Origin: Parcubacteria group bacterium
GTDB lineage: Bacteria; Patescibacteriota; Minisyncoccia; SW-4-49-11
DNA length: 64,000 nucleotides
Direction: 5' to 3'
Assembly: GCA_943354045.1 (NCBI GenBank)
Contig: CALRBF010000001.1
Coordinates: 136,026 to 200,025 of the forward strand
Part shown: one piece after another, positions 6,479 through 42,318 of the stretch
How positions within the stretch are numbered: the first letter of the stretch is position 1
Layout of the letters: each line of letters opens with the position of its first letter
Notes under the pieces: generated by a model
Databases searched by the model: none
Told to the model about the DNA's origin: nothing
The model's input: the letters and a program-made list of their open reading frames with translations, nothing else
Program-made: the position numbers and the translations under genes

Positions 6479-8404
6479 TTACTTCTCTACGGTAAGCTGA
6501 TCTTGTATATCACTAACTTGATTACTACTAGGAGTATCTATGTTACCAGATAAATCAATTCCTGTAAACACATCTTTTCCCGTATAACTTACTTTACTCA
6601 ACAAACTTGGCTCTTGTCCTAATTGATTCGGGGTAGGATTAATTGCAATTTGGAATACCGCCCTATAAAGTGGTCTCAATAATCCCGTATTAGCAGGGAC
6701 ATTACCAATATCCCAAATTATTTCTTTAGTTCTATCATTATAACTTAATTTTCCAAATCCATTATTAGTACTTTGCCCTGTCCAACTAATATTAGCCGGT
6801 AATGTAGCCTTCAAGACAACCCCTGAGACATCATTAGTTAAATTTTGTATTTCCCAATTGACCGTAAATGTCGTAGTCTGAGCTAATTTTAATGGAATAG
6901 GTCCATTATTAATAATAGAACTTGTGGAACTTTTGTAATAGATATTTGATTTTGGAATAAGTCTCGTAGCTAATTTGACTTCACTCGCATTACCTTGAAT
7001 AATTTTATTTACTCCAAGAGTTGTAGGGACTTCATCACTTTCAAAGGTAGCTTGAGTTTTAATGACATAATTAATATCTTGAAAATCATCAATAGGAATA
7101 ATGCGCTTTACTGGTACTGAAAAATTTATTGTCCCCTCTTCATTTGGGGCAAATGTCTTAAGTTGAGGCAAAGCATTTGCTCGCCAAATAATTGTATTGC
7201 TTCCAGAGTCAAAATCAGCTCCTAAAGCTTTTAATTTAGTTATATCCAACAAATTACTATCGAGCTTTACTTTCAATAATCCCTCACCTATTCTCACTTG
7301 GGTATTATTTCGAATAGTAACAGTATAATCCAGAGTTTCTCCTGCGGATACTATTCCTGAGATAGGACTTACTTTTTGTACAATACTCACATAAGGAGAC
7401 CCTAATTTGGTTGAATTTTGACTATTCGCATATAGTGTAAATGCTCCTTGCTTATTTTCTCCAATTTGAGCTTTGAGAATTTTTATTTCTTGATCAAGAC
7501 CTCCAAGATTTCCTATAACCGTAACACTATAGGATCCTTTTGCTTTTAGGATTGGTATAGTAAAGATATTTTTCTCATTGCCCGTAGCGGTAATATTAGA
7601 TGATACAAAAGCAAAAGTATCAGGATATTCTAAACGCAATTCTAAATCTTTTAAATCATTAGATCCCTTATTATTTACCGTCACCACATAATTAACCGTG
7701 TCTCCACTTACACTTTCAAGAGGCGACTGTATATCAACAATGACGGGACTATCTGCTATGGTGGTCGCAAATTCAGTTTTAGTATCAAAACTAGAGTTTA
7801 AAATACTTGGCTTATAATTTAATATTGCTTTAATAGTTTGTATACTTCCCTGCTCTCCTATTAATCGTCCCTTTATGGTGATTTCCCCCTTGGAACGAGG
7901 AGCTAATTCTCCTAGAGAATATTCTCTTATCTCTGATTTTTCTTGTCCTAAAATATTCAAAGAAGAATCTGTTAGAGCTTTTGGTAATTCAACTGTAATC
8001 TTAGCATTTTCCAAAGCAACGAGATTATCATTACGATATGTGAGTGTATAACTCAAATCTTCTCCCGCACTAACTTGAGATGACCCCTTTACCTCTAACA
8101 CCACTCTCTTATCAGAGAATCTCTGCTGATTAAGAGAATATACAAAACCAGCTATTCCTATTGTAACAAAGACTGATAAGGCAATTAGACTCCATAAAGT
8201 AATTTTCTTCTTATATTTTTGAAAGAATGTTTGATCTGCTATCTCAAAAGAAGTTAATGATGGAGCCTTAGCTTCATCTCGCTTAGCATAAACACTGTAG
8301 GGAGTATGTTGAGTACGCTCTTGATCTAATATTTCACGATCTTCTTTTTGATAAATTTGTTTTTCTATATCTTTTAATGCCATATTATTTTTAACAATAT
8401 ACAA
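6479..8404 (-). CDS. Membrane-anchored surface protein with three DUF11/CARDB-like beta-repeat domains
   Basis: About 70-aa cytoplasmic N-terminus, one TM helix (LWSLIALSVFVTIGIAGFVYSL), then repeated segments of the pattern AGE.L.YT.T..N.G.......V.L ... (for example SGDTVNYVVTVNNKGSNDLKDLELRLEYPDTF), typical of the 'conserved repeat domain'. Confidence 0.5.
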   Translation of the reverse strand: MYIVKNNMALKDIEKQIYQKEDREILDQERTQHTPYSVYAKRDEAKAPSLTSFEIADQTFFQKYKKKITLWSLIALSVFVTIGIAGFVYSLNQQRFSDKRVVLEVKGSSQVSAGEDLSYTLTYRNDNLVALENAKITVELPKALTDSSLNILGQEKSEIREYSLGELAPRSKGEITIKGRLIGEQGSIQTIKAILNYKPSILNSSFDTKTEFATTIADSPVIVDIQSPLESVSGDTVNYVVTVNNKGSNDLKDLELRLEYPDTFAFVSSNITATGNEKNIFTIPILKAKGSYSVTVIGNLGGLDQEIKILKAQIGENKQGAFTLYANSQNSTKLGSPYVSIVQKVSPISGIVSAGETLDYTVTIRNNTQVRIGEGLLKVKLDSNLLDITKLKALGADFDSGSNTIIWRANALPQLKTFAPNEEGTINFSVPVKRIIPIDDFQDINYVIKTQATFESDEVPTTLGVNKIIQGNASEVKLATRLIPKSNIYYKSSTSSIINNGPIPLKLAQTTTFTVNWEIQNLTNDVSGVVLKATLPANISWTGQSTNNGFGKLSYNDRTKEIIWDIGNVPANTGLLRPLYRAVFQIAINPTPNQLGQEPSLLSKVSYTGKDVFTGIDLSGNIDTPSSNQVSDIQDQLTVEK

Positions 8405-9131: not shown

Positions 9132-10907
9132 TTATATTTCAATAATAACCGGTATAATCATTGGCCTTCTATGTGTAGTTCTGAATAAGAATAATCCCAA
9201 ATCTTCACGAATTGATTGTTGTATATATTCAATACTTTGATCCTCTCCATGAGACAATTTTTTCTCAATATGTTCTTGTACTCGAGATTGTATAGATTGT
9301 ATTAATTTGGTAGATGTTTGAATATGAACAAATCCTTTAGAGATAATTTCTGGTTCACGAATACATTTTCCTTGTTTAAAATCAACTAAAGCTACTATGG
9401 TCACAATACCATCTTGAGCCAAGGATTGCCTATCTCGAATTACAATTTCTTTTAAGTCACCTATTCCAAGCCCATCCACCATCATAGTGCTAGCATTGAC
9501 TTTTTCTGTAGTAACACGAGCCTCTCCTTTATATATCTCTATAATTCTTCCATTATCAGTAAGCAAGATATTATCCTTTTTCATACCCGCTTCAATCGCT
9601 AAATCACGATGAGATTTGAGTGAATAAAAATCTCCATAAATTGGTTGTAAATATTTGGGGCGAATTAAATCTAATAATTGTTTTAAATCATCACGTTGAG
9701 CATGTCCAGAAACATGTACTTCCATCATTTTATAATGAATAATATGTGCTCTTTGGCGAGCAATAGCATCTTTCACTTTTTGTACTGACTCCTCATTACC
9801 TGGTACAACCGAAGATGAAAATACAACGGTATCTCCCTTTTCAATATGAAAATTACGATGCTCTCGATTTGCCATACGAGTAAGAGCCGAGCGCTCATCT
9901 CCCTGAGCTCCTGTACAAATAATAGTAAGGTTTTCTGGAGGAATATTACGAGCCTCTTGTGCACTAATAACAGTTTGAGGAGAAAAATGTGCATATCCAA
10001 TTTCATGGAGAATTTGAACATTAGTTTTCATACTAAATCCCTCTATCACAACTTTACGATTATATTTTTCAGACAAATGAATCATTTGCTGTATACGATT
10101 CAGAGTACTAGAAAATGTAGTGACAATAATTTTACCCGTAGCATTTTCAAAAATATGATCAATATTATTTTGAATAGTCATCTCAGAAGTAACCCTACCA
10201 GAACGAGAAGCACTCGTACTATCAGATAATAATACTAATACTCCCTCATCACCAATTTTACGATACATTTCTAAATCAGCCGGCTCCTCTCCAACAGGAG
10301 TAGCATCTATTTTAAAATCACCAGTATGGAGTATAACTCCTTCTGGAGTTTCAATTTTAATCATAGTTGAATCAGGAATACTATGATTAATATGAAGGAA
10401 AGTTACGGTAAAAGCTCCAAATTTAAGCTTTTCATTTAATTTAGCTACTTTTCCATTTAATGGAGGTACGGTGGTAAATTCACTTTGACGTCTTTGCATC
10501 ATAGCAAGAGGCAAAGCAGGTGCATATATAGGAGGATTTCCAATCATAGACATAACCTGCGATACTCCTCCAATATGGTCCATATGACCATGAGTAATAA
10601 GAACAGCTCGAATATTATCCTCTTTTCCTTTAAGATAACTTGGATTAGGAATAATATAATCAACTCCTGGCTGATCTTCTTCTGGGAATTTCATCCCAAT
10701 ATCAATGACGAGAATATCTTTTCCATATTCTATTACCGTCATATTACGACCTCCAATTTCTTCTGATCCACCCAATGGAATGATTTTCAAAAGATTATCT
10801 TTAGTCTTAAATGGTTCTTTTGCATTAAGATACTCATTACTTTTATGACTTAAATCTGTCACAAAAGTTGTTCCTCTCTTAATTTCAGAGTGTTGATACG
10901 ATTTCAT
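9132..10907 (-). CDS. rnj: Ribonuclease J (canonical paralog)
   Basis: Metallo-beta-lactamase motif II is intact (LITHGHMDHIGG). The beta-CASP and C-terminal domain lengths fit RNase J (591 aa). Confidence 0.85.
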   Translation of the reverse strand: MKSYQHSEIKRGTTFVTDLSHKSNEYLNAKEPFKTKDNLLKIIPLGGSEEIGGRNMTVIEYGKDILVIDIGMKFPEEDQPGVDYIIPNPSYLKGKEDNIRAVLITHGHMDHIGGVSQVMSMIGNPPIYAPALPLAMMQRRQSEFTTVPPLNGKVAKLNEKLKFGAFTVTFLHINHSIPDSTMIKIETPEGVILHTGDFKIDATPVGEEPADLEMYRKIGDEGVLVLLSDSTSASRSGRVTSEMTIQNNIDHIFENATGKIIVTTFSSTLNRIQQMIHLSEKYNRKVVIEGFSMKTNVQILHEIGYAHFSPQTVISAQEARNIPPENLTIICTGAQGDERSALTRMANREHRNFHIEKGDTVVFSSSVVPGNEESVQKVKDAIARQRAHIIHYKMMEVHVSGHAQRDDLKQLLDLIRPKYLQPIYGDFYSLKSHRDLAIEAGMKKDNILLTDNGRIIEIYKGEARVTTEKVNASTMMVDGLGIGDLKEIVIRDRQSLAQDGIVTIVALVDFKQGKCIREPEIISKGFVHIQTSTKLIQSIQSRVQEHIEKKLSHGEDQSIEYIQQSIREDLGLFLFRTTHRRPMIIPVIIEI

Positions 10908-10908
10908 A

Positions 10909-12675
10909 TTAAATATTCATTATTATTGGTAAAATCATTGGTCTTCTTTCTGTCTTAGTAAGTAATAAGCGACCAATATTTTCTCTTACTTCATCTTGTA
11001 TATAAGCAATATTTACTTCATCAGATTGTTTCAAAAGAGCCAATACAATTAATCTTGTTTGTTCTTTTACTTCATTAAATAGTTTCTCTGAAGATTCATT
11101 ATCTACAAAGCCCTTAGACACAACTACAATATCTCCCAATATTTCGCGAGAATCAGCATTAAGCAATGTTACAATATGTAATATACCCTCTTCTGACATT
11201 GTTTGTCTATCATGTATAACTACATTAGTTAAATCACCTACGCCTAGACCATCTACTATTACATTGGAAGTTGGAACTTTTTCCGGAGTGATACGCCTTT
11301 GTTTATAATCAAATAGAATGACTTTTCCATTCATACCTATTATTACATTACGATCTGGATACCCTCCTTTAATCGCAATATCTCCCGTAGACCTCAATAA
11401 ATGATGAGAACCACTAATAGGCACATAATATTTAGGGCGAATTGCTTTTAATACAGCCAAACTATCCTCATATCTTGCATATGCAGCAAATCGTGTATCA
11501 AGTGGCTGATAATATTCCACAAAAGCTCCTAATTTTGCAAAATTATCATTTACTCGAGCAGCTGAGCGAGCATTACCTGGAATTAATGCTCCAGGATACA
11601 TCACAATATCTCCCTCTTTAATTGAGAAAACACTATGTTCATTATTAGCTAGTCTCATCAAATGAGGAATATCATCCCCATGAGAACCAGATATTAATAC
11701 TACTAACTGCTCTCTTGGAGTATCCCCAAGTAAACTAGGTCCCACTATAGTACCTGATTTAATTTGAATAAACCCCTTTTTGCGACATGTATTAAACGTA
11801 TTAAGTAAACTTTTTCCTTCAATAAATAAATGCTTATTATGAGCTTCTACTGCATTGACAATTTGTTGCATACGCCCAATCATAGATGGAAATGTAGATA
11901 CAAATACCGTACCCGTAGTACGAGCTATAACCGAGTCAATATGCTCAGCAATGGAAGCCTCCTTAGGAGTAAACCCTTGAGATTCTGTAGCAGAACTTCC
12001 AGATAAAAGAGCAAATGTATCAGCTCCCGCTAATTCCTTTATATAATCGAGAAATTCATTTTTTTCTCCTGATTCACTATCCAATTTATAGCTAGAGAGA
12101 TAAAATACCTTTCCTTGCATAGTATACACACATAATCCTATTGAACCCATCACATTAAATGGAGTTGGAAAAACATTCACTTTAAAGGATCCTACTCGTA
12201 TAGAATTATAAGGTTTGATAATATGTTTTTTGTATTTTACCCCTTGAGAATAAAAATCCTGACGAGATTCCAATATTGCAAATAAAGCCTCTGTTGCATA
12301 AATATGCAGATTAGGAAATAAATGTAAAAGATATGGTACAGCCCCAATATGATCGGGATGTGGGGACGTTAATACTACTCCCTTTATTTTGGAGCTATTA
12401 TCCATCAAATACTGCGTATTGGGGATAATATAATCAATTCCTGGTTGATTAGCACCAGGCATTTGAAGCCCCATATCGACAATCAGAATATCATTTTCTT
12501 GCTCAAATATATACATATTCTTACCAACACCATCAAGCCCCCCCAAAGGAATGATTTTGAGAGCTTGGCGTGAAGTTTCAGGAATAGTTCTTTTTTGAGC
12601 AAAACTTTTTCCTTGAGATCGAGAACGGTTATTCTTATTCTGTGAATTATTATTGTATGGTCGTTTTGATTGCAT
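10909..12675 (-). CDS. Ribonuclease J paralog with degenerate motif II and Asn/Lys-rich N-terminal extension
   Basis: Same architecture as the upstream gene, but motif II reads LTSPHPDHIG (S-P-H-P-D-H, not H-x-H-x-D-H). About 45 aa of basic low-complexity N-terminus (MQSKRPYNNNSQNKNNRSRSQGKS...). Confidence 0.75.
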   Translation of the reverse strand: MQSKRPYNNNSQNKNNRSRSQGKSFAQKRTIPETSRQALKIIPLGGLDGVGKNMYIFEQENDILIVDMGLQMPGANQPGIDYIIPNTQYLMDNSSKIKGVVLTSPHPDHIGAVPYLLHLFPNLHIYATEALFAILESRQDFYSQGVKYKKHIIKPYNSIRVGSFKVNVFPTPFNVMGSIGLCVYTMQGKVFYLSSYKLDSESGEKNEFLDYIKELAGADTFALLSGSSATESQGFTPKEASIAEHIDSVIARTTGTVFVSTFPSMIGRMQQIVNAVEAHNKHLFIEGKSLLNTFNTCRKKGFIQIKSGTIVGPSLLGDTPREQLVVLISGSHGDDIPHLMRLANNEHSVFSIKEGDIVMYPGALIPGNARSAARVNDNFAKLGAFVEYYQPLDTRFAAYARYEDSLAVLKAIRPKYYVPISGSHHLLRSTGDIAIKGGYPDRNVIIGMNGKVILFDYKQRRITPEKVPTSNVIVDGLGVGDLTNVVIHDRQTMSEEGILHIVTLLNADSREILGDIVVVSKGFVDNESSEKLFNEVKEQTRLIVLALLKQSDEVNIAYIQDEVRENIGRLLLTKTERRPMILPIIMNI

Positions 12676-13192: not shown

Positions 13193-14839
13193 CTATTGCG
13201 TAATACTTTGGAGCACTGTATTAGACAATCGTGTTGGCCAATAGGTTATACGTTTTATGCTGCCGTTTATTCGCTCCTGTCCACCAAAATCGTAATGTCC
13301 AACAGTTGCCATATTGACAGTTGGTAGTACTCCACTTGAATCTGTTTCTAATGCTACGCCCACTCTTTTTAGTGCAAAATCATTCGCCGCATAACCAAGT
13401 GCTACCTTGTTACCGCCGGGTGAACCAAAGATTGCTTGGACAGCGGATACCGAGACAACCGCCGTTTGTGCTGCGGCGTTTGAGAATTGAATCCGCTCTC
13501 CTGCGTCTGTGGATGCCCGAACGGTGATTGTTGCCCCGCCTCCAAGGACATTAGCTGTTTCTCCATAGAAAGTACCCCCCAACTGATTATACCAAGAGTT
13601 AAAATTAGTACCTGCTATTATTGTTGCACTATCTGCAAATCTTTGTACAGTAGCAGTCGTTGTAGGTATATAGGATGTAGCAAAAGCCCCTTGTTCTAAT
13701 TGAGCCCCCCATGCATAATAGCTATTCGTTGATGTAGAAGCTCCCCAAGTATCAAACCAAACTGACCCATTAGATTGTGTTAATACCGAATTCAAAGTAG
13801 CAGTTATGCTACAACGATACCAACCATTTCCTACATTTGTTATTGTTGCATTTGCAGCTGTTGCTGTCCCATTAACCGTAACTCCTCCAGATAATTGTCC
13901 CGTTGCAAGATTCAATAGCTGATTGGCTCCATTACCACCGGCAGCATCATCTATTCTTATTAATATTACAGATTGTGTATTAGCCTTCAGATAAACAGAA
14001 AACGTATAAGTCCCTATTGTAGATGTTGTAGCAGTTTTAGCCCAAACTTTAACATTACTAGTACTATTAGAACCAGTAACTATATCAGCATTTATACCTC
14101 CATCTGGAGAAGCAATTGTATTGGCTATTATAGCAACATTATTGAGGCTGGTACTAGCAGCTAAATCAGCTGATTGTAATAATAAATTTGTCCTCTGCTC
14201 CTCCACTAATAGCCCTAAACTCTCCCTGGTCACAGGATTATGATTAAACCTTGGTGCATTTACTGCTGCCGTCTTAATAAGTCCATCTGAGTCTACATAT
14301 GTTGCCGTAGGAGTAGTTTCTAAAACATTTCTTATAAAACTTATTGGATTAGTACCATTGACTGCATTGGTTAATTGTTTATCTCTTGCAAAGTTTAAAT
14401 CTAGGGTTGGTGCTACTGTTGTTCCTCCTGCTGCTGTTGCCAATATATTACTATTATCATATCCAGTACTTACTCCATTTACTGTCTTTGTCACTAAGTA
14501 TTGCCCTCTATCTGGTATGGGTATTCCTGCTATATAGTCACTTAATGCACTACTTAAATCTATTCCATTACTACATCCTGCTACTACACATAATCCTACT
14601 GTACTTCCTACTCCTACTCCTTGTAATGCTGGCGGATATACTCCCCTTTCTATAATATATTGTTGTATTGCCTTTGCTATTGCATTTTGATCTGATTTCC
14701 TCTTTGCTTCCCTTGCTGCTTCTATTTGTTTATTGGGGTTTATTGCAATTAATACTATTGCTGCTAATATACCTATTGCGGCAATCACCAATAATATCTC
14801 TAATAATGTAAATCCTTTCTTTTGTTTTCCTCCCCTCAT
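13193..14839 (-). CDS. Giant type IV pilin-like protein (prepilin N-terminus fused to large C-terminal domain), paralog 1
   Basis: Class III leader and N-terminal hydrophobic helix (MRGGKQKKG|FTLLEILLVIAAIGILAAIVLIAI). 548 aa. Shares conserved blocks with the 570-aa paralog at 18908..20620. Confidence 0.75.
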   Translation of the reverse strand: MRGGKQKKGFTLLEILLVIAAIGILAAIVLIAINPNKQIEAAREAKRKSDQNAIAKAIQQYIIERGVYPPALQGVGVGSTVGLCVVAGCSNGIDLSSALSDYIAGIPIPDRGQYLVTKTVNGVSTGYDNSNILATAAGGTTVAPTLDLNFARDKQLTNAVNGTNPISFIRNVLETTPTATYVDSDGLIKTAAVNAPRFNHNPVTRESLGLLVEEQRTNLLLQSADLAASTSLNNVAIIANTIASPDGGINADIVTGSNSTSNVKVWAKTATTSTIGTYTFSVYLKANTQSVILIRIDDAAGGNGANQLLNLATGQLSGGVTVNGTATAANATITNVGNGWYRCSITATLNSVLTQSNGSVWFDTWGASTSTNSYYAWGAQLEQGAFATSYIPTTTATVQRFADSATIIAGTNFNSWYNQLGGTFYGETANVLGGGATITVRASTDAGERIQFSNAAAQTAVVSVSAVQAIFGSPGGNKVALGYAANDFALKRVGVALETDSSGVLPTVNMATVGHYDFGGQERINGSIKRITYWPTRLSNTVLQSITQ

Positions 14840-14907
14840 AAGAGTTATTTTTATTTTTACATTTTCCTTACTCTCATTATAGTACAGTATGAGTATTTCT
14901 TCAAATA

Positions 14908-16566
14908 TTATTTACTTTTTTGACAGGCTTTTACAAAACCCTTAAAGAGTGGATGTGGGTTAAGAGGATGAGAAATAAGTTCAGGATGGAATTGAGTTCC
15001 TATAAAGAATGGGTGACTGGCAAGTTCAATAATTTCTACTAAGTTATTTTCTGTATTAACTCCTGCAATAATAAGTCCTGCTTTCTCTAATTCTTCCCGA
15101 TATGTATTATTCACTTCATAACGATGACGATGTCTCTCCTGGACTTGAGCAGTATTATATAATTTACGTGTAAGAGTTTTCGGTGCTATATCGCAAAGAT
15201 ATTCTCCTAATCTCATACTTGCTCCCATTGTCTCTTGTTCCAAATTAATATCCTGTCCCTCTATAATATCAATAACTGGATTTGGAGTTTTAGGATCTAT
15301 TTCGGCTGTATGAGCTCCTTTAATTTTAGCGACATTGCGAGCATATTCTACTACGGCAAGTTGCATACCATAACAAAGTCCTAAATAAGGAATTTTATTC
15401 TCACGAGCATATTGTATAGCTTTTAATTTCCCCTCTACTCCTCGCTCCCCAAATCCTCCTGGAATAATAATTCCATCATATTGCTTTAATCCCGCAACTT
15501 TTTTGGAATCATTTTCAAATTCAGAACTATCTATCCAATCAATTACTGGCTTGAGACGCGCAGAAAAACTGGCATGCTTAATTGCCTCAATTACCGATAT
15601 ATAGGCATCACTCAAAACAAAATTACCACTATTAAAGTATTTCCCTACAATTCCAATTTTAATTTCTTTGTTTGCAGTGTCAATTTTTTGGGTAAAGCTC
15701 GTCCATTCTTTCAAATCTCTTTTTCGAGGGCGTAAATCTAATTTTTTTAGTAATTTGGTTGAGAGATTATCATATTCAAAATTAATAGGTACATGATAAA
15801 TACTATCAACATCAGGAGCTGAGATAACATCGTCAGCCGAGACATTACACATAATAGATAATTTTTGTTTCCTGATATCATCAAGAGGATGACTGGAACG
15901 AGCCACAATCATATCCGCCTGTATTCCAGCACTATTGAGTAACCGAGAGGCATGTTGAGTTGGTTTGGTTTTCATCTCACCAATTTTACTCGGAATAGGA
16001 AGATAACTTACTAATACAAATAATATATCTTGAGGATTTTCTAATTTAAGTAGTCTGGCTGATTCTAAAAATAATAAATTCTCATATTCCCCTGCAGTTC
16101 CTCCAATTTCAATAATAGTAATATCTGCATTATGCGTACTCTGAGCCTGTTTAATACGATTTATTACTTCATTCGGGATATGTGGAACAACACTTACACA
16201 TTTACCTCCAAATTTGAGAGCCCGCTCCTGCTCTATGACTGATTGATATACAGAACCTGTCGTCATATAATTAATGCGTGTGAGTTTGGTATCAAGAAAT
16301 CTCTCATAATTACCCATATCTTGATCACATTCCAATCCATCAGCAAGAACAAAAGTCTCCCCATGCTCCAATGGATTCATAGTCCCTGCATCTACATTGA
16401 CATAAGGATCAATTTTGACTGCTGTCACATTGAAGCCACGAGATTGGAGAATTAAAGCCATTGATGAGGTGGTAATTCCCTTACCCACTCCTGACATTAC
16501 ACCCCCAACTACAAAAATATATTTAGGATTTGATTTTTTTGCTTTACTCGTTTTCCGAATTGACAT
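14908..16566 (-). CDS. pyrG: CTP synthase
   Basis: N-terminal KYIFVVGGVMSGVGKG, glutamine amidotransferase domain (GLCYGMQ), 552 aa. Confidence 0.9.
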   Translation of the reverse strand: MSIRKTSKAKKSNPKYIFVVGGVMSGVGKGITTSSMALILQSRGFNVTAVKIDPYVNVDAGTMNPLEHGETFVLADGLECDQDMGNYERFLDTKLTRINYMTTGSVYQSVIEQERALKFGGKCVSVVPHIPNEVINRIKQAQSTHNADITIIEIGGTAGEYENLLFLESARLLKLENPQDILFVLVSYLPIPSKIGEMKTKPTQHASRLLNSAGIQADMIVARSSHPLDDIRKQKLSIMCNVSADDVISAPDVDSIYHVPINFEYDNLSTKLLKKLDLRPRKRDLKEWTSFTQKIDTANKEIKIGIVGKYFNSGNFVLSDAYISVIEAIKHASFSARLKPVIDWIDSSEFENDSKKVAGLKQYDGIIIPGGFGERGVEGKLKAIQYARENKIPYLGLCYGMQLAVVEYARNVAKIKGAHTAEIDPKTPNPVIDIIEGQDINLEQETMGASMRLGEYLCDIAPKTLTRKLYNTAQVQERHRHRYEVNNTYREELEKAGLIIAGVNTENNLVEIIELASHPFFIGTQFHPELISHPLNPHPLFKGFVKACQKSK

Positions 16567-16996
16567 ACAGTTCTATCTTAGTTTTTATAATGGGGGTGAG
16601 ATGAATATCAATAGTATATGTTCCTATTGCTTTAATGGGACTTGCAATATGAATCATTTGCTTTTCTAATAATTCTCCAAATTCAGTATTAAGCCTTGAG
16701 ACAATATCACTTTCTTTAATAGCTCCAAACAAATGTCCTTCTGAGTTAGTCTTGGCAACAACAGTCAATGAATAATTCTCTAGTTTAGCCTTAAGATTAT
16801 TAAGAGCTTCTAAATGAGCTTTTTCATTTGCTTCCGACTGTTTAGCTTGAGATTTTTTTTGAGCAATATCTTGAGCTGTTGGTATTATACCCAATCTTTT
16901 ACGTAAGAGAAAATTTCTTCCATATCCTTCTGATACTGTGATAATATCTCCTTTTTTTCCTATTGATGGAACATCTTGATTTAAAAGTATCTGCAT
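16544..16996 (-). CDS. rplI: 50S ribosomal protein L9
   Basis: MQILLNQDVPSIGKKGDIITVSEGYGRNFL matches the L9 N-domain. The 3' end overlaps the pyrG start by 23 nt. Confidence 0.85.
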   Translation of the reverse strand: MQILLNQDVPSIGKKGDIITVSEGYGRNFLLRKRLGIIPTAQDIAQKKSQAKQSEANEKAHLEALNNLKAKLENYSLTVVAKTNSEGHLFGAIKESDIVSRLNTEFGELLEKQMIHIASPIKAIGTYTIDIHLTPIIKTKIELYVNSENE

Positions 16997-16999
16997 ATT

Positions 17000-17281
17000 T
17001 CAGTGTATTATTCTAAACTCTCGTGAACTGGATACAATATATTCTTTATTATCCCAAAACTCAGCAACATTGTCAACGCGTGAAAGAGTTGAACCTTTAT
17101 GAACTCTTTCAATCAGCTCTTGCAATTGTTGTGACTCCCCCCAGGCTTCAATTTGAACCGTACCATTTGGAAGATTCTCTACTGTTCCTATGATATCTAA
17201 TTTTTCTGCTTCAGATACTACAAAGACTCGAAATCGTACCATCTGCACTCGCCCTGATACAATAAGTTTTACATATTGCAT
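17000..17281 (-). CDS. acyP: Acylphosphatase
   Basis: VSGRVQMVRFR and GTVENLPNGTVQIEAWG signatures, 93 aa. Confidence 0.75.
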   Translation of the reverse strand: MQYVKLIVSGRVQMVRFRVFVVSEAEKLDIIGTVENLPNGTVQIEAWGESQQLQELIERVHKGSTLSRVDNVAEFWDNKEYIVSSSREFRIIH

Positions 17282-17282
17282 A

Positions 17283-17933
17283 TTAACCTAAAATTACATT
17301 AGTGAGCCCAAATATAAGAGGACTAATCAGTCTAAAACCAAATAAAGCAAATATGAGTACAATAAACATTCCTTGTTCTTCTAATACGGCATAGGCTTTA
17401 CTCCTAATAATATTATACGGAAGTAGTGGAGCAATAATTTTGGACCCATCCAGAGGAGGAATCGGTATAGAATTAAATACTGCAAGGACAATATTAATAA
17501 GTACTGCAATAAAAAATAATTGAGCTACTTCTTGAGGGATTGTCATAAATAGTCCCGCTATACGATACAGAGCTCCAAGACCTAAAGCTAATAATAAATT
17601 GGACCCAGGTCCTGCAAGAGCAACGAGAGCGGGAGCCCATTTTTGATCTCTTAATAAATAAGGATTAAATGGAACCGGCTTGGCATAACCAAACATAAAA
17701 GCTCCACTACTACTAATACCAAGTACTAATGGCACTATAATAGAGCCATATATATCAATATGAGGGATGGGGTTAAGAGTTAATCTCCCTGCTAATTTCG
17801 CTGTAGGGTCCCCCAGAGCCAAAGCGATAACTCCATGGGACACCTCATGAATAATCACCGCAAATATCAAGATAATAATTTGAAATATAATTAAAATTGT
17901 AGCAATATCCATAAACAGTTGACTTTTATTCAT
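17283..17933 (-). CDS. Peptidase M50 (site-2 protease-like) family membrane metalloprotease
   Basis: HEVSHG (HExxH) lies within a TM helix. The protein is polytopic, about 216 aa. Confidence 0.65.
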   Translation of the reverse strand: MNKSQLFMDIATILIIFQIIILIFAVIIHEVSHGVIALALGDPTAKLAGRLTLNPIPHIDIYGSIIVPLVLGISSSGAFMFGYAKPVPFNPYLLRDQKWAPALVALAGPGSNLLLALGLGALYRIAGLFMTIPQEVAQLFFIAVLINIVLAVFNSIPIPPLDGSKIIAPLLPYNIIRSKAYAVLEEQGMFIVLIFALFGFRLISPLIFGLTNVILG

Positions 17934-18241: not shown

Positions 18242-18877
18242 TTAGATAATTTCTTTTTCTCCAAGGAATTTAGGTTGGCGATTGATAATATGAACATCGG
18301 TCCAAGCCTGGGTACGAGCTAAAATTTCTCGTACCTGTGTGCGAATACTAGATTTGAGAGACACTCCTTCTGCCACAAATCCTTCCGCATCAATACCCAG
18401 GGTTCTGGCAATATATACCGCTCTTTTGATATGAAATTCCTGAGAAATGATAATAATATCATTTTGCCCAAATATATCTCGAGAGCGTACTACCGAATCA
18501 AGAGTACGAAATCCTGCATAGTCGAGAACTATATCATCTTTTGGAATGCCTCGCTCTAATAATGCTGTCTGCATTGCCTTAGGCTCATTATAAGATACCT
18601 CTGCATTATCTCCACTTACTAAAATCTTTTTAATTTTACCTTTTTGATATAATTCTACTGCTGCCTCAATACGATTTACAAAATAGGGATTATCCCCTCC
18701 TCCAATCATACGCTCACTAGTACCTAGCACCAAACCAACCTTATGATCTTTTACATCATCTGCTTTATTTTTAATAAATGGTATAGGATCATGGGAAATT
18801 GAAGCATTGGTATATGCAATAAAAACAATAGATCCGATAATTATAATACCTATACTTCTTCGAATAAATACAATCAT
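18242..18877 (-). CDS. SanA/YdcF/ElyC (DUF218) family protein
   Basis: N-terminal membrane anchor plus a DUF218-like core (VLGTS ... IIIISQEFHIKRA). Confidence 0.5.
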   Translation of the reverse strand: MIVFIRRSIGIIIIGSIVFIAYTNASISHDPIPFIKNKADDVKDHKVGLVLGTSERMIGGGDNPYFVNRIEAAVELYQKGKIKKILVSGDNAEVSYNEPKAMQTALLERGIPKDDIVLDYAGFRTLDSVVRSRDIFGQNDIIIISQEFHIKRAVYIARTLGIDAEGFVAEGVSLKSSIRTQVREILARTQAWTDVHIINRQPKFLGEKEII

Positions 18878-18907
18878 ATAGTATAGTATAGCATATGATT
18901 GGGGATT

Positions 18908-20620
18908 TTATTTAGTGATATTAGTCAGAGTTGTATTGGATAATCGCGTCGGCCAGTAGGTTAATCGGGAGATTATACCATTAAGAGCATATGGTGGAGC
19001 TCCTCCAGTACCACTTCCAATATCTAATCTATCATGTGTAGCCATACCTGTGGCAGCTGTATTAGTTGTTATAGTTCCTATATTTCCATTAATACCTACA
19101 ATTAAATCTGAGCTATTAATTGCATATACAGATTTATATATGTTATTGCCTACTAAATAATTAAATGTCATCCCTGGAAATAATAATATTGGATTAGGAT
19201 TACGTGCAACACCCAAAAAAGATGTCGCATTTATAGCTCCTCTTAAAGCATAATTATTTTGATTTATAGCGGTATTATATACTTGGAATATATGTGGGGT
19301 ATTACTTGGAATTGCAGCAGTAGCAGTATAAATAGGAGAAAATTGACTAAACCAGGTTCCTGCTGCCTGATTATACCAACCTCCTCCTGAAGTTGTGGTA
19401 AAGTTTGTCCCCGTGATGCTCGCCACATCCGCGCTGCGGGTTACGGCGGCGGTGGTGGTAGGAATATATGAAGTTGGGAAAGCTCCTTGTTCTAGTTGAG
19501 CTCCCCAAATATAAACTTGAGAACCATTATAATTAGTACCATCATAATTACCTATACGAAATTGTGGTCTAAATGTAGTTTGTCCTGTAGGGATGGTATA
19601 AGTTGCAGAGACTCTATACCAATTATTACTATATGGTGTTATGGATGAAGCTGTAATATTAGTTCCTGTATTAATTGTACCTGATACTAAATTAATACTC
19701 ATAGAATAATTTAATCCCCAACCCTCTTGTACAATAGTGGCATTTTGCTGATTAATATATTTAACAAAAACTGAATATGTATATACTTGCCCTGTAGAAG
19801 CAGCTATCGTTTTTGCAACATTTGGATATAGCCCCGAAGCAGACATTAAAGTTCCTGTATTTGTACCATCCGGAGCTAAAGATTGGTTGGCAGTAGCAGA
19901 CATTGAGCCAGATTTTTCCCAATATACATTACTAATATCTGTACTATACAGCCATAAATTAGTTCTCTGCTCCTCAATCAATAGTCCTTGACTTGATTTT
20001 GTAATAGGATCATGAGTAAATCTTGGTGCATTTACTGTTGCGGTCTTAATAAGTCTATCTGAGTCTACATATGTTGCCGTAGGTGTACTTTCTACAATAT
20101 TACCTGGATTAGTTACTCTTGCAAAATTTATGGGATTAGTCCCATCAACTGCATTTACTAATTGTTTATCTCGGGCAAAGTTTAAATCTAATTTTGGAGC
20201 TGTAGTCCCAGCTGTTGCCCATATAGTACTACTATCATAGGCTGGTATAATCCCTGTCGCTGTTTTGGTTATAGTATATTGCCCCGTTTGAGGCAGAGGA
20301 ATAGCTGCTATATAAGGCGCTAAGTCAGTAGTCAAATCTATACCCCCTGTACAAGGGCTCGTCACACATAATCCTACCGTCCCTCCTGTTATCACAGATT
20401 GTAAGGCTGGTGGATATTTACCCCGATTATTGACTACATACTGTTCTATTGCCTTTGCAATAGCATCCATATCAGCTTTTCTTTTAACAGCTCTCCCGGC
20501 CTCTAATTGCTTATTAGGGTTAAGTACTACTAAACCTATTGCTGAAAATACACCAATAGCTGTGATTACTAATAATATTTCTATTAGGGTGAATCCTTTT
20601 TTCTTTTTATATATTATCAT
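18908..20620 (-). CDS. Giant type IV pilin-like protein, paralog 2
   Basis: Prepilin leader/helix MIIYKKKKG|FTLIEILLVITAIGVFSAIGLVVL. 570 aa. Conserved blocks shared with 13193..14839: LDLNFARDKQL.NAV.GTNPI.F, TPTATYVDSD.LIKTA.VNAPRF.H.P.T......GLL.EEQRTNL, IWGAQLEQGAF.TSYIPTTTA, R.TYWPTRLSNT.L. The blocks are separated by divergent segments. Confidence 0.75.
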   Translation of the reverse strand: MIIYKKKKGFTLIEILLVITAIGVFSAIGLVVLNPNKQLEAGRAVKRKADMDAIAKAIEQYVVNNRGKYPPALQSVITGGTVGLCVTSPCTGGIDLTTDLAPYIAAIPLPQTGQYTITKTATGIIPAYDSSTIWATAGTTAPKLDLNFARDKQLVNAVDGTNPINFARVTNPGNIVESTPTATYVDSDRLIKTATVNAPRFTHDPITKSSQGLLIEEQRTNLWLYSTDISNVYWEKSGSMSATANQSLAPDGTNTGTLMSASGLYPNVAKTIAASTGQVYTYSVFVKYINQQNATIVQEGWGLNYSMSINLVSGTINTGTNITASSITPYSNNWYRVSATYTIPTGQTTFRPQFRIGNYDGTNYNGSQVYIWGAQLEQGAFPTSYIPTTTAAVTRSADVASITGTNFTTTSGGGWYNQAAGTWFSQFSPIYTATAAIPSNTPHIFQVYNTAINQNNYALRGAINATSFLGVARNPNPILLFPGMTFNYLVGNNIYKSVYAINSSDLIVGINGNIGTITTNTAATGMATHDRLDIGSGTGGAPPYALNGIISRLTYWPTRLSNTTLTNITK

Positions 20621-20679: not shown

Positions 20680-20708
20680 CACTATTTGCAAATTATTTGC
20701 AAATAGTG
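20680..20708. promoter_or_regulatory. 29-bp perfect palindrome CACTATTTGCAAAT-T-ATTTGCAAATAGTG about 32 bp upstream of znuA
   Basis: A 14-1-14 perfect inverted repeat that also contains an ATTTGCAAAT sub-palindrome twice. The position suits an operator for the znuABC promoter, and possibly the divergent pilin promoter. Confidence 0.45.
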
Positions 20709-20739: not shown

Positions 20740-21720
20740 ATGAAATCATCTCGATTTATTTTACTTATTATCCTACTATTATTGGGAGCAGTAGCAATAT
20801 TTGCACTCAATAGACCTAAGGATGTAGCCAAAGATACTGTACAAATTCAATCACAAACACAAAAACCTATTATTGTAGCTACTTTATTTCCCTTCTATGA
20901 TATCACAAAAACATTAGTAGGAGATCAGGCTGATATTTCTCTTCTCCTACCCCCCGGTATAGAGCCACATTCTTTTGAACCGACTCCACAGGATATTATA
21001 CAAATTCAAGAAGCAGATATATTTATCTATACTGGTGATATTATGGAGCCTTGGGTAAAAGATATTATTGCTAATTTACCTAAAACTGTTACTATTATTG
21101 ATGCAAGCAAAGGAATAAATTTAATTGAAAGCTCAGAAGACCATGATCATGGGCATGGTCACGATGATAAGAACAGTAAAGAAAAACTTGCTCTTGATCC
21201 TCATTTTTGGTTAGACTTTAATAATATTATTATAGCAACTAATACGATTTCAGACTCTTTAGCTCAGCTCAATGTACTTGATTCTAACTCATTAACTCAA
21301 AATAAAACCACCTTGATCAAAGATTTAACTCAATTAGATACAGATTATGCCAATACTCTTGGTAATTGTCGCAACAAAACCATAATACAAGCTGGTCATA
21401 GAACATTTGGCTATTTAGCACGTAAATATAATCTTGAATATATTACTACAGAAGAATTAAGTCCTAATAGCGATACTTCAGCTCAAGATATATCAAAGCT
21501 AATTGATGAAATTAAGGAAGAAAAAGCTAAAGCCGTATTTAGCGAAGAATTAATTGAACCTCGTATAGCAAAAACCGTATCGGATGAGACAGGAGTACCC
21601 ATATTATTACTCAATGGGGCTCATAATATCACATCTGACCAATTCAAATCCGGAATATCTTTTATTACTATTATGCGAGAGAATTTAGAGAATATTACTA
21701 TTGGGCTTGATTGTAAATAG
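20740..21720 (+). CDS. znuA: Zinc ABC transporter substrate-binding protein (ZnuA/TroA family)
   Basis: Signal peptide, His-rich loop SEDHDHGHGHDD, and a DPHFWLD motif typical of cluster A-I metal-binding proteins. Confidence 0.8.
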   Translation: MKSSRFILLIILLLLGAVAIFALNRPKDVAKDTVQIQSQTQKPIIVATLFPFYDITKTLVGDQADISLLLPPGIEPHSFEPTPQDIIQIQEADIFIYTGDIMEPWVKDIIANLPKTVTIIDASKGINLIESSEDHDHGHGHDDKNSKEKLALDPHFWLDFNNIIIATNTISDSLAQLNVLDSNSLTQNKTTLIKDLTQLDTDYANTLGNCRNKTIIQAGHRTFGYLARKYNLEYITTEELSPNSDTSAQDISKLIDEIKEEKAKAVFSEELIEPRIAKTVSDETGVPILLLNGAHNITSDQFKSGISFITIMRENLENITIGLDCK

Positions 21721-21737
21721 GTGTTATACTTATTCCT

Positions 21738-22487
21738 ATGAATAATACTCTTATATCCCTTGATAAGGTAGCGGTATCATTTGGGGCAAGTCAAGTTTTA
21801 CAAAATATTAGTCTTGATATCAAACAAGGTGATTTTATAGGTATTACCGGTCCCAATGGAGCGGGGAAATCCACTCTGATTCGAACACTATTAAATCTCA
21901 ATCCCTATACGGGTTCTATTAAACTTTGGGATACTCCCCTCTCTGATTTTCATCATTGGAATTATATCGGATATGTTCCCCAATCTTTAACACAATATTC
22001 TCGTCAATTTCCCGCAACAGTAGAGGAGATTGTGTCTCTAGGACTTATCTCTACTCTATCTTGGCCTCGTATACTTAATCAAGAGAATATAAATCATATC
22101 TATGATACGCTCAAATCTCTTAATATACAGGATTTGGCAAAAACCTCTATTCATGATTTGTCAGGGGGACAAAGACAAAGAGTATGGTTGGCAAAAGCTC
22201 TCGTATCAAAACCAAAAGTATTAATTCTTGATGAACCAACTAATGCTCTTGACCCTGAAATTAGAAATACCTTTTATGAACAAATTAGTAAACTTCATAA
22301 ACAAGGTTTAACTATTCTCCTCATAACCCATGACACCAATGATATTGGAAATTATGCTGAAAAGATTCTGCTTATCGATACCAATATTATATTTTGGGGA
22401 GATTTTAATGAATTTTGTAAATCTGATTCAATGAGTCATTATTTTGGGGAGGGTTCAAAACATATTATTTGCCATCAACATGAATAA
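21738..22487 (+). CDS. znuC: Zinc ABC transporter ATP-binding protein
   Basis: Walker A GPNGAGKST, ABC signature LSGGQRQR, Walker B ILDEP. Confidence 0.8.
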   Translation: MNNTLISLDKVAVSFGASQVLQNISLDIKQGDFIGITGPNGAGKSTLIRTLLNLNPYTGSIKLWDTPLSDFHHWNYIGYVPQSLTQYSRQFPATVEEIVSLGLISTLSWPRILNQENINHIYDTLKSLNIQDLAKTSIHDLSGGQRQRVWLAKALVSKPKVLILDEPTNALDPEIRNTFYEQISKLHKQGLTILLITHDTNDIGNYAEKILLIDTNIIFWGDFNEFCKSDSMSHYFGEGSKHIICHQHE

Positions 22488-40545: not shown

Positions 40546-42318
40546 CTAGGTATATATAACTCTAGGATTATACTGTTCCAAACCATTTTCTTTGTCTAAG
40601 ACAGTAGCAATTTCTTCACTCAATTCTCTTAATCGTGCCTGTTTAGTATCAAAATCATCGGGTTTTTGATATTGCTCTATATATTCTTTTAATTTATTAA
40701 TTGCTTTAATAATAGAATCCTTATCTGTAAGTTCTGTTTGCTCTAGTTTACCTCTTATATATTCACTTTGACTATATCTTTTATTTAATTCAACTACTCT
40801 AGATGTGTTAATAGAAAATTTAGAATTTATTGTATGATATTGACTAATATATTGGTCTCGCTCAGTAATCCTTAATTTTATATTTTCTAAAATTGGGCTT
40901 AATCTAGATATAGCATCTTGATCTCTAGAGGGATTCCATCTTGATTTAGATTTATTCTGTTCTAGATAATCCTCTATTTCTCTCAGTTCCCCTACTTTCA
41001 TTTTTTTGCTTTCTGGTATTCTAAAATTACGAAGTGCTCTAATATTACTTATAGCTGATCCTAATCTATCTAATTCAGTATTTAGAGATGTACTACTATC
41101 TTCAACTTTATTTGATAATTCCTCTAAGGTTTTTTGATAATCTTCTTGTAATTCAAAACCTTTACCTGTTAATCTAACTTCACAAGTGACTTTTTCTAAT
41201 TCTTCTGATAATAAATTTAGATTTATATTATCAGAAGACCTATCTCTTTCTAAATGAGAAGCTTCTTGATATGATGGATCTCCTTTAATACCCCCTACTT
41301 CTTGTTCTAAAGTATTTTTACTATCTCTAAGTAAATTTAATTCCCTCTCTTTAGCGCCCCTAGCAAAATATTGAATAGATTGTTCAGTAGATTCTGAGCC
41401 GTTATACACCTTTGAATCTACTTTTAGCTTTTTAATTTGCTCCATTCCATCAACATACCCGTATAATTCAAAAATTTCTTCCAAATCTCTATCTGATATA
41501 TAGAATTCTGTTTCACCCCTTACTTCTCGTGTGACCTTAGTTTCAGATAATCTTTTTTCTAATTCTCCTTTAGCTCGCTCTAATAAAATAGGTTTATCAT
41601 TCTCTTCTGCTCCAGTTTCTGCATAACTTGCCTGAGATTCTGTTAATTGCGTATTCAATTCTTCTAGCCTAGTTTGTATAGCTGTCTGTACTTGATTTTC
41701 AGTTTCTTGATCAAAAGTTTGTAAATTTTGTGCTACCTGTAATAAGGAATCTTCATTAGCCTTAATTGCTGCACCAAATTGTGGTTTACTTCGTGCTTTC
41801 TCAGTAAATTCTTCGATTGACTCTGTACTTTTAGGATTAGTTGCTTTTAACTTATTATAAGCTTCCTTAATCATCTGTAAAAGTTGTAGTTGTATTCCTG
41901 ACAATTTTGTTTTTGTATTTTCCAAACTAATTCTAGACTCTTGTCTAGATTGTAAAATTTCATTTTGTATTGCGTCAAACGCTTCTCCCTGCCTACTTTC
42001 TAATTGCTGAATTTGAGATTTAATGTCCTGTATTTCTAAGCCTTGTTCTGATAATCCATCTTCATTTACTTCAAATGATGGTTTTGATTCTTTTATTCCT
42101 TGATCGACTAATTCATCCAAATCAAAATTTAAGGAATCTGGATCAAGTTCTGGCTCTCCCTCAATAGCAGGAGACTCTTTATCTTCTATAGTTTCTAGAC
42201 CTGCTTGTAATTTAGCTAATTCTTCAGGGGATAATTCTGTAGATGCAGCATTACCAGAAGAACCTGCACCACCCTCTTGTTCTGGAGCATATACTATTGA
42301 ATTCTCAAATAATCTCAT
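40546..42318 (-). CDS. Large acidic coiled-coil protein (hypothetical), encoded directly downstream of ftsA
   Basis: 590 aa, E/Q/L-rich with heptad character throughout. No TM segment, no tubulin (GGGTGSG) motif and no P-loop. It lies 9 bp downstream of ftsA on the same strand. Confidence 0.55.
   Translation of the reverse strand: MRLFENSIVYAPEQEGGAGSSGNAASTELSPEELAKLQAGLETIEDKESPAIEGEPELDPDSLNFDLDELVDQGIKESKPSFEVNEDGLSEQGLEIQDIKSQIQQLESRQGEAFDAIQNEILQSRQESRISLENTKTKLSGIQLQLLQMIKEAYNKLKATNPKSTESIEEFTEKARSKPQFGAAIKANEDSLLQVAQNLQTFDQETENQVQTAIQTRLEELNTQLTESQASYAETGAEENDKPILLERAKGELEKRLSETKVTREVRGETEFYISDRDLEEIFELYGYVDGMEQIKKLKVDSKVYNGSESTEQSIQYFARGAKERELNLLRDSKNTLEQEVGGIKGDPSYQEASHLERDRSSDNINLNLLSEELEKVTCEVRLTGKGFELQEDYQKTLEELSNKVEDSSTSLNTELDRLGSAISNIRALRNFRIPESKKMKVGELREIEDYLEQNKSKSRWNPSRDQDAISRLSPILENIKLRITERDQYISQYHTINSKFSINTSRVVELNKRYSQSEYIRGKLEQTELTDKDSIIKAINKLKEYIEQYQKPDDFDTKQARLRELSEEIATVLDKENGLEQYNPRVIYT

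Follow-up and report, generated by a model that had tools for sequence, protein, structure and literature searches.

Two modular type IV pilins with phage-fibre-like modules in a Parcubacteria genome and the probable role of domain exchange in their diversification

Described modular pilins and the pilin pair of the window

Modular type IV pilins with lectin modules bind glycans and have been modelled at the pilus tip (PMC9934059, PMC8179133). Described examples are PilC (PDB 7oa7/7oa8) of Streptococcus sanguinis and PilB with its vWA module (PMC8179133, PMC9934059), and the published census of modular pilins already includes cases from candidate phyla (PMC8179133). Two genes of this kind, here called A and B, were analysed in a stretch of 64,000 nucleotides from a Parcubacteria group bacterium (GenBank assembly GCA_943354045.1, contig CALRBF010000001.1, positions 136,026 to 200,025), hereafter the window, which has a GC content of about 34% and is tightly filled with housekeeping genes. 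Gene A (18908..20620, minus strand) is an open reading frame (ORF) for a 570-aa modular type IV pilin, with matches to PF07963/TIGR02532, NF048003 and phrog_5939; gene B (13193..14839, minus strand) encodes a 548-aa paralog of the same architecture. The definition of a modular pilin in PMC8179133 asks for a pilin module at the N-terminus and for one or more further recognised modules that are not peculiar to pili; NF048003 and phrog_5939 cover aa ~136-570, and A and B are therefore members of this known class. It is probable, in our judgement, that both are modular type IV pilins which display phage-type glycan-binding modules and have been diversified by recombination.

The pair was compared with the described systems. 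In PilC a generic lectin domain is carried, whereas the graft on A and B is a two-domain module with homology to phage head and tail fibres (E 1e-56 to 1e-71). A and B are also orphans among housekeeping genes, their variable domains (cassettes) are exchanged and the genes are gained and lost at fixed sites, which is not reported for PilC. The lectin-like minor pilins PilX1 and PilX2 of Saccharibacteria TM7x are implicated in host binding (PMC11623550); their genes lie in pilus loci, and neither phage-fibre homology nor cassette exchange is described for them. The head fibre of the gene transfer agent (GTA) RcGTA is a single flexible subunit, N-terminally anchored, which binds capsular polysaccharide (PMC7296036, PMC10218006). 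This protein, Rcc01080 (GhsB; PDB 6tb9), is homologous to A and B over a stretch that begins at the adaptor motif, takes in the jelly-roll and ends with the WGAQLE...IPT...R.AD linker; it has the same topology, with an N-terminal anchor and the remainder free to bind, binding being a predicted property in A and B. It differs in three respects: the anchor of A and B is a pilin and not a capsid- or baseplate-binding peptide, A and B are chromosomal and lie outside a phage or GTA cluster, and Rcc01080 is without a second large C-terminal domain. The homology to phage proteins of phrog_5939 and NF048003 runs, in many phages, through the second domain to the C-terminus. The mosaicism of phage tail fibres and receptor-binding proteins has the same conserved junctions, interchangeable binding domains and identity steps, with domain combinations that vary among related genomes, although A and B are cellular pilin genes at fixed chromosomal loci. 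The pilE/pilS system of Neisseria likewise combines conserved and variable pilin segments with non-reciprocal conversion between copies; unlike it, A and B have no silent cassettes in the 64-kb window and no short-term variability, and what varies in them are entire folded domains that do not belong to the pilin fold.

The literature on fusions of pilins with phage fibres in Patescibacteria yielded nothing specific. Three features appear to be new, namely the grafting of a complete receptor-binding module of phage head/tail-fibre type onto a pilin, the independent exchange of the two domains of that module as cassettes, in the manner of phage tail fibres, and a turnover of genes (gain, loss, tandem duplication) at two fixed sites within an otherwise frozen housekeeping region.

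The identity between A and B was plotted along A. Over the full length it is 44% (BLASTP, E 6e-126), with 59% in aa 1-135, 67% in aa 136-222, 24% in aa 223-365, 62% in aa 366-415, 12% in aa 416-545 and 68% in aa 546-570; this unevenness over six regions, which were set post hoc, gave a chi-square p of 3e-24. The profile is in accordance with an earlier note, made from the DNA letters, which had described large pilin paralogs with a mosaic of conserved and variable parts. Uniform divergence is not seen, and the blocks are no low-complexity artefact, being the most conserved motifs of the family. The note had put the blocks at more than 70% identity, a value reached in the best 30-residue windows (73-80%), whole conserved blocks lying at about 60-70%. 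It had also taken the segments between the blocks for unrelated; both middle segments match NF048003 and both C-terminal segments align to the end of phrog_5939. Its 29-nt pattern, offered as near-identical DNA around WGAQLEQGAF, occurs at exactly two sites (13683-13711 and 19479-19507; chance expectation 0), and the two copies agree at 26/29 positions; beyond it the nucleotide identity is about 0.6. As this 29-mer is the only similar stretch there, the synonymous sites are saturated and the motif is family-wide, the DNA similarity was ruled out as a sign of recent exchange, and the mosaic itself is real.

The pilin carrier and the phage-fibre-like module

All features of the two genes given below lie on the minus strand. 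The pilin module comprises aa 1-135 of A (20216..20620) and aa 1-134 of B (14438-14839). Both proteins showed a class III signal peptide with a basic leader, the motif KKG-FTL(I/L)E and then about 20 hydrophobic residues. The leader of A is MIIYKKKKG, followed by FTLIEILLVITAIGVFSAIGLVVL, with cleavage predicted before F10 and the glutamate of position +5 at E14; that of B is MRGGKQKKG, followed by FTLLEILLVIAAIGILAAIVLIAI. The N_methyl model PF07963 was matched with 24.8 bits by A and 25.8 bits by B (cut-off 21.2), and the IV_pilin_GFxxxE model TIGR02532 with 26.1 and 28.4 bits (cut-off 16.3). The AlphaFold2 (AF2) model of A, having a predicted local distance difference test score (pLDDT) of 83.6 and a predicted template modelling score (pTM) of 0.78, was analysed with DSSP and contains a helix alpha1 at aa 12-64 and strands at aa 81-129 in a small beta-sheet. 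The model of B (pLDDT 80.3) has a helix at aa 12-65, strands at aa 80-128 and the same layout of secondary structure, so that the signal peptide in the sequence is joined in both proteins by a predicted lollipop fold. The pilin module of A also has a C-x4-C pair (C85, C90).

About 33 clusters carry the fusion of pilin and adaptor, as counted by an exhaustive HMMER search (query aa 1-225) of 1.84 billion representatives, which was used for the family count; a word-index search with aa 1-225 gave a single match, P0129, a 153-aa pilin-only ORF at locus A of a relative that stops at the fusion boundary of A and supports the limit of the pilin module. One fused pilin of 37% identity was found in a metagenome-assembled genome of Ca. 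Paceibacterota, at a locus not syntenic with the window. This relative, together with the low GC, the compact housekeeping content and the orphan pilins, fits a presumed patescibacterial origin of the window. Pilus machinery was not found near the fused pilin of a relative (L004), where the gene is an orphan too. Many further pilins of 320-650 aa (P0153-P0259) have N-terminal modules akin to this one (40-50% identity across aa 5-120) and unrelated C-terminal regions, a similarity that points to a possible broader modular-pilin repertoire on the same carrier module.

The remainder of each protein, some 75% of its length, matched phage fibre families, an identity that had escaped the earlier note. 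The phrog_5939 profile, annotated 'tail protein', was matched by A with E 5e-71 (aa 136-569) and by B with E 1e-70, at about positions 350-762 of 801. The NF048003 model, 'phage head spike fiber domain', was matched by A with 160.1 bits (E 8e-47; residues 214-397) and by B with 127.9 bits (E 6e-37), far above the curated cut-off of 36 and over the whole model (positions 1-182 and 1-180 of 182). The family profile identified the RcGTA head spike fibre Rcc01080 (PDB 6tb9) with E 1.4e-56, together with phage baseplate-wedge and tail-fibre chains. The tblastn alignments to Synechococcus myophage 'tail proteins' take in 99% of the module, and those to tail fibres of RcapMu and of Rhizobium, Nonlabens and Klebsiella phages its first half. 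Relatives are encoded on 118 IMG/VR viral contigs, the best of which covers nearly the whole module. The phage homologs start at the adaptor motif, and their N-termini differ from the pilin. The predicted structure of the module matches lectin and carbohydrate-binding module folds.

Two non-pilin homologs lie in phage head-morphogenesis modules (L011:10001-11377 and L015:8171-9541), the contexts being a T7-like contig, between scaffold and capsid genes, and a lambda-like contig, between cement protein and head-tail joining genes. Because these two sit in head modules and not among tail genes, many family proteins annotated 'tail protein' may be head fibres, as in RcGTA.

The small pilin module (class III signal peptide, alpha1 and small sheet) acts as a carrier, and a module of 410-435 residues is fused to it at about residue 136. 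The grafted module consists of four parts. A conserved adaptor leads into a variable jelly-roll; a linker, also conserved (WGAQLE.GAFPTSYIPT), then joins this to another variable domain, a lectin/LamG-like beta-sandwich with a conserved strand and helix at its end. The adaptor of A, or block 1 (aa 136-222, 19955..20215; LDLNFARDKQL...PRF.HDP...GLLIEEQRTNL), marks the start of phage homology and is a recombination junction. The middle cassette (aa 223-365, 19526..19954) is the variable jelly-roll, the core of the GTA/phage head-spike-fibre domain by its match to NF048003 and Rcc01080. Block 2 (aa 366-415, 19376..19525; YIWGAQLEQGAFPTSYIPTTTAAVTRSAD...WYNQ) forms the junction of the two cassettes, the C-terminal cassette (aa 416-545, 18986..19375) is the second, ConA/LamG-like beta-sandwich, and block 3 (aa 546-570, 18911..18985; NGIISRLTYWPTRLSNTTLTNITK) holds the last strand and the terminal helix and is the third junction. 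The corresponding parts of B are the adaptor (aa 135-219, 14183-14437), the middle cassette (aa 220-370, 13730-14182), block 2 (aa 371-415, 13595-13729), the C-terminal cassette (aa 416-523, 13271..13594) and block 3 (aa 524-548, 13196-13270).

Domain by domain, A and B resemble non-pilin, phage-like proteins more than they resemble one another. For the middle domains, identity to non-pilin proteins is 41-43%, compared to 24% between the paralogs. The C-terminal domains share 12% between the paralogs; of the non-pilin proteins, P0084 is 70% identical to the domain of B and P0025 53% to the domain of A. The C-terminal cassette of B is atypical in composition, with a GC of 0.49 and a GC at third codon positions (GC3) of 0.35 against about 0.2 in the rest of the genome (p 2e-4), and is 72% identical in nucleotides to the P0084 gene, itself on a contig of 51% GC. 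GC3 peaks at two places, 13271-13594 (0.35) and 19376-19525 (0.40, block 2 of A), against about 0.2, and these may be imported DNA whose composition has not yet drifted to that of the genome.

Exchange of domains among related loci

The two loci were compared with five syntenic loci from independent metagenomes, having a flank nucleotide identity of about 87-99%. The gene order is constant: znuCBA, locus A, DUF218-M50-acylphosphatase-L9-CTP synthase, locus B, then S16 and two RNase J genes. The pilin genes themselves vary from 0-2 copies at locus A and 0-1 at locus B. The window, L001 and L002 have one fused gene at each locus. L008 has two tandem fused genes at locus A (L008:8320-11695; 558 and 564 aa), with similar pilin modules and different cassettes, and one gene of 530 aa at locus B. 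L009 has one fused gene at locus A and a cleanly empty locus B, the gap corresponding to window positions 13197-14908, that is gene B and its upstream spacer. Locus A is empty in L012, which has one fused gene at locus B. L013 (and likewise GCA_041447075.1) has an empty locus B and, at locus A, a 153-aa pilin-only ORF (L013:6001-6462). This ORF shares 83% identity with the pilin module of A and terminates at the fusion joint. It represents either what a deletion left behind or the ancestral state before the fusion.

The nucleotide identity of three alleles to A, binned by codon, changes in steps along the gene. The P0002 gene is 83-98% identical over most of aa 1-160, 35-55% over aa 221-380 and 95-100% over aa 421-540. 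The P0003 gene shows 75-87% in the pilin/adaptor part, 82-100% in the middle domain and about 30% in the C-terminal domain. For the P0009 gene, which has a B-type pilin at locus B, the values are 60-70%, 30-40% for the middle and mostly 67-90% for the C-terminal domain. The flanks lie at 87-94%. At the protein level the middle cassette of A is 24% identical to that of B, 90% to P0003 and 27% to P0002, and the C-domain type of A is found on a B-type pilin at locus B of L012. The homology breaks at 19970-19999 (GLLIEEQRTNL; L008 alleles), 19505 (L008) and 19455 (L009), 19455-19505 being WGAQLEQGAFPTSYIPT, and in L009 it resumes at window position 18940 (TYWPTRLSN). These breakpoints coincide with the three framework blocks. 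Among 27 fused proteins there are 7 pilin types, 21 middle types and 21 C-domain types, in reassorted combinations (mid2+C1, mid2+C4, mid3+C4, mid5+C1, with C1 on two pilin types). Thus the middle and C-terminal domains are swapped independently, with junctions in the conserved blocks.

Exchange within this genome was found in one place. A tract of A at 20021..20111 (gene nt ~510-600, aa ~171-200; …VESTPTATYVDSDRLIKTATVNAPRF) has a 27-nt exact match to B, a 60-nt stretch of 92% identity to B, and a synonymous divergence (dS) of 0.17 compared to at least 1.0 elsewhere between A and B. At gene nt 539-597, 13/16 informative sites are in the B state as against 11/57 upstream, and a Fisher test of nt 490-620 against the upstream part gave p 7e-5. 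The other alleles of the same 90% cluster, 5/5, have NSIGTYVGSDG at this place, the family-consensus version, and are themselves 10 residues shorter; within that cluster the 570-aa allele of A is confined to this genome. The tract is a short, recent B-to-A conversion and the sole recent exchange within this genome.

The close strains gave the time scale. The assembled consensus of L001 does not differ from the window at any position of the 3' 1.1 kb of A or of the part of B that was compared; the B protein is identical to P0012, and the B encoded by L002 is identical to that of the window. The 5' 600 nt of A, coding for pilin and adaptor, are a patch of 7-16% divergence from a near-identical strain. 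Ongoing variation, a prospect raised with the mosaic, is thus not seen, the near-identical strains sharing identical 'variable' domains and differing in the pilin/adaptor part. Since the cassettes are invariant in such strains and the ratio of nonsynonymous to synonymous divergence (omega) of orthologous cassettes is 0.18-0.25, the diversification is one of occasional whole-domain replacement over longer time scales and not of rapid programmed variation. The divergence of L001 as a whole is gathered in patches of 5-16% (20024-20620, 21621-21920, 18621-18920 and 16822-17420), the rest being nearly identical, a pattern that suggests frequent homologous recombination within the population.

Alternative explanations and biological meaning

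An ancient duplication under uneven constraint, in which the framework was conserved and the surface loops drifted with no recombination, is unlikely as an account of A and B, though it agrees with the substitution data and with the invariance of the cassettes in close strains. Saturation of the synonymous sites between A and B extends to every conserved block with the exception of the one tract: dS is 1.8 in the pilin module and 1.0 in block 1, the proportion of synonymous differences (pS) is 0.81 in block 2, and omega is 0.1-0.2. An alignment of 64 family members (27 pilin-fused and 37 non-pilin) showed that the conserved blocks of A and B are the consensus blocks of the family, LDLNFA..K.L...TFTRAS.GTYV.SDGLIKTA..N.PRF.H.P.TG.S.GLLVEEQRTNL for block 1, YIWGAQLE.GAFPTSYIPTT.A.VTR.AD....G.NFSSWYNQ for block 2 and NG.I.RLTYWPTRL.N..L..IT for block 3, motifs common to thousands of phage proteins. 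Because the synonymous sites are saturated, omega is low and the motifs are family-wide, the blocks are kept by purifying selection on a structural framework, and recent exchange has not homogenised them. Such selection also acts on the orthologous cassettes, with the pairwise omega given above against 0.04-0.07 in neighbouring housekeeping genes; positive selection in the cassettes gave no signal. A duplication of this kind is contradicted by orthologs that occupy one locus and yet have their domains reassorted, with abrupt steps in identity, by C-terminal domains that are closer to two different non-pilin proteins than to each other, by the A-type C domain on a B-type pilin in L012, and by the conversion tract. 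The suggestion of recombination-driven variation of a surface, made in the earlier note, accordingly holds for the independent replacement of domains in relatives and for one conversion tract, and fails for the conserved blocks of A and B as footprints of recent exchange.

Programmed antigenic or phase variation of the Neisseria pilE/pilS type, with silent cassettes rewriting the expressed genes, is very improbable. It would account for conserved blocks that flank variable segments in pilin genes and for one non-reciprocal conversion between paralogs. The further copies or silent cassettes which had been proposed were, however, not found: tblastn and blastn revealed no partial or silent copy, fragment or repeat of A or B in the 64-kb window, both genes are complete ORFs, and among the best 120 homologs only B shares the 425-kb contig of A. 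Three near-identical strains are without differences in about 1.1 kb of the A cassettes and in the compared part of B, the comparison with L001 and L002 (assembled consensus sequences) showing no high-frequency population variation, and the converted tract sits in a conserved block and not in a variable segment.

That A and B are no functional pilins at all, being a prophage or GTA-like remnant or cargo fibre genes with a hydrophobic N-terminus, is hardly tenable, even though three quarters of each protein are phage-fibre-like. No phage genes were found in the window and its neighbouring housekeeping genes are syntenic in five relatives, which rules out a prophage context. The N-terminus is a pilin that passes the curated models with G-1, F+1 and E+5, in place of a capsid or tail anchor; with such an N-terminus and with syntenic housekeeping neighbours lacking phage genes, A and B are domain homologs and not virion fibres. 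The fusion is shared by the clusters counted above, the site is taken in a relative by a pilin-only ORF, and the N-termini of the phage homologs are different. Targeted hypermutation by a diversity-generating retroelement is the least credible of all. Such elements are common in small-genome bacteria and often target lectin-fold receptor-binding proteins (PMC11661182), yet the window contains no template-like repeat of A or B and no reverse transcriptase among its annotated ORFs, and the allele differences are whole-domain replacements and not adenine-focused substitutions.

Other features of the window were also recorded. A perfect 13+13-bp palindrome, CACTATTTGCAAATAATTTGCAAATAGTG, lies at 20680..20708 (unstranded) in the 119-bp divergent intergenic region between znuA (from 20740, plus strand) and gene A (from 20620, minus strand); it may be a shared, perhaps Zur-like, operator of the zinc-uptake operon and pilin gene A, its tie to the pilin system being uncertain. 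The promoter/terminator scan gave no enrichment over shuffled sequences, and the Rfam scan of the window gave 4 tRNAs only. Two tandem full-length RNase J paralogs of 591 and 588 aa (9132-12675) are conserved in all syntenic relatives, as is, in relatives, a 641-aa DUF11/CLIPPER-repeat protein (6479-8404), probably another surface protein. An ORF of 590 aa with no Pfam match (40546-42318) lies directly upstream of an FtsA-like gene.

Four points weigh against the reading of A and B as modular pilins that display phage-type binding modules diversified by recombination. PilB, PilC, PilD, PilM and PilT are absent from the annotated ORFs of the 64-kb window, so that the argument for pilus assembly is the signal peptide by itself. 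The invariance of the cassettes in near-identical strains means that exchange is infrequent over short times. The comparison loci all come from metagenome assemblies, and some mosaics could be chimeras, against which stand the independent samples and assemblers, the recurrence of several alleles on multiple contigs and junction blocks that have no long exact shared words. Finally, it is from homologs that glycan binding, a place at the tip and a partner cell as target are inferred.

The mechanism we propose is as follows. Prepilin peptidase would cleave A and B, and alpha1 would insert them into type IV pili, probably as low-abundance subunits placed at the tip, which is the most likely location because the appendage is 45 kDa. 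The fibre could work on a monomeric pilin, unlike the trimeric tail fibres, because a fibre of the RcGTA type is single, N-terminally anchored and flexible. The two beta-sandwich domains would bind glycans and set the attachment target of the pilus; in a small, probably host-dependent cell this would most likely be a partner organism's surface. The three framework blocks serve as homology anchors for recombination of the cassettes, the exchange partners being paralogs, strains and loci and, over longer times, possibly the phage gene pool too. Genes are gained, duplicated in tandem, truncated and lost at the two fixed chromosomal sites.

A wider reading, which is possible but doubtful, holds that a probably epibiotic lineage of small-genome bacteria domesticated a phage receptor-binding fibre on a pilin and keeps re-sampling domains from the phage pool, possibly from phages of its own host. 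These phages are considered as a source because both they and the epibiont must recognise the same cell-surface glycans. Re-sampling of the phage pool fits the domains that are nearer to non-pilin proteins from contigs of about 50% GC, the raised GC3 of the C-terminal cassette of B and the breakpoints in motifs shared with phages. If this wider reading were true, pilus-tip specificity and partner range would evolve by the cassette logic of phage host range.

Little has been learnt of the way in which ultra-small, host-dependent bacteria find their partners. Suspicion falls mainly on type IV pili, and specificity determinants have been identified in one Saccharibacteria model only. A and B are a concrete candidate for such a determinant, being pilins that expose a receptor-binding module of phage type whose two domains can be exchanged. 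The natural series of alleles, with the same pilin and different cassettes and with loci that are empty, single, tandem or truncated, could link cassette type to partner or glycan specificity, and the modules may find practical use as fluorescent probes for the hosts of uncultured lineages. If the proposal is true, A and B would be a clear example of a viral host-recognition module taken over by a cell to attach itself, and the host ranges of phages and epibionts would be linked through a shared pool of binding domains.

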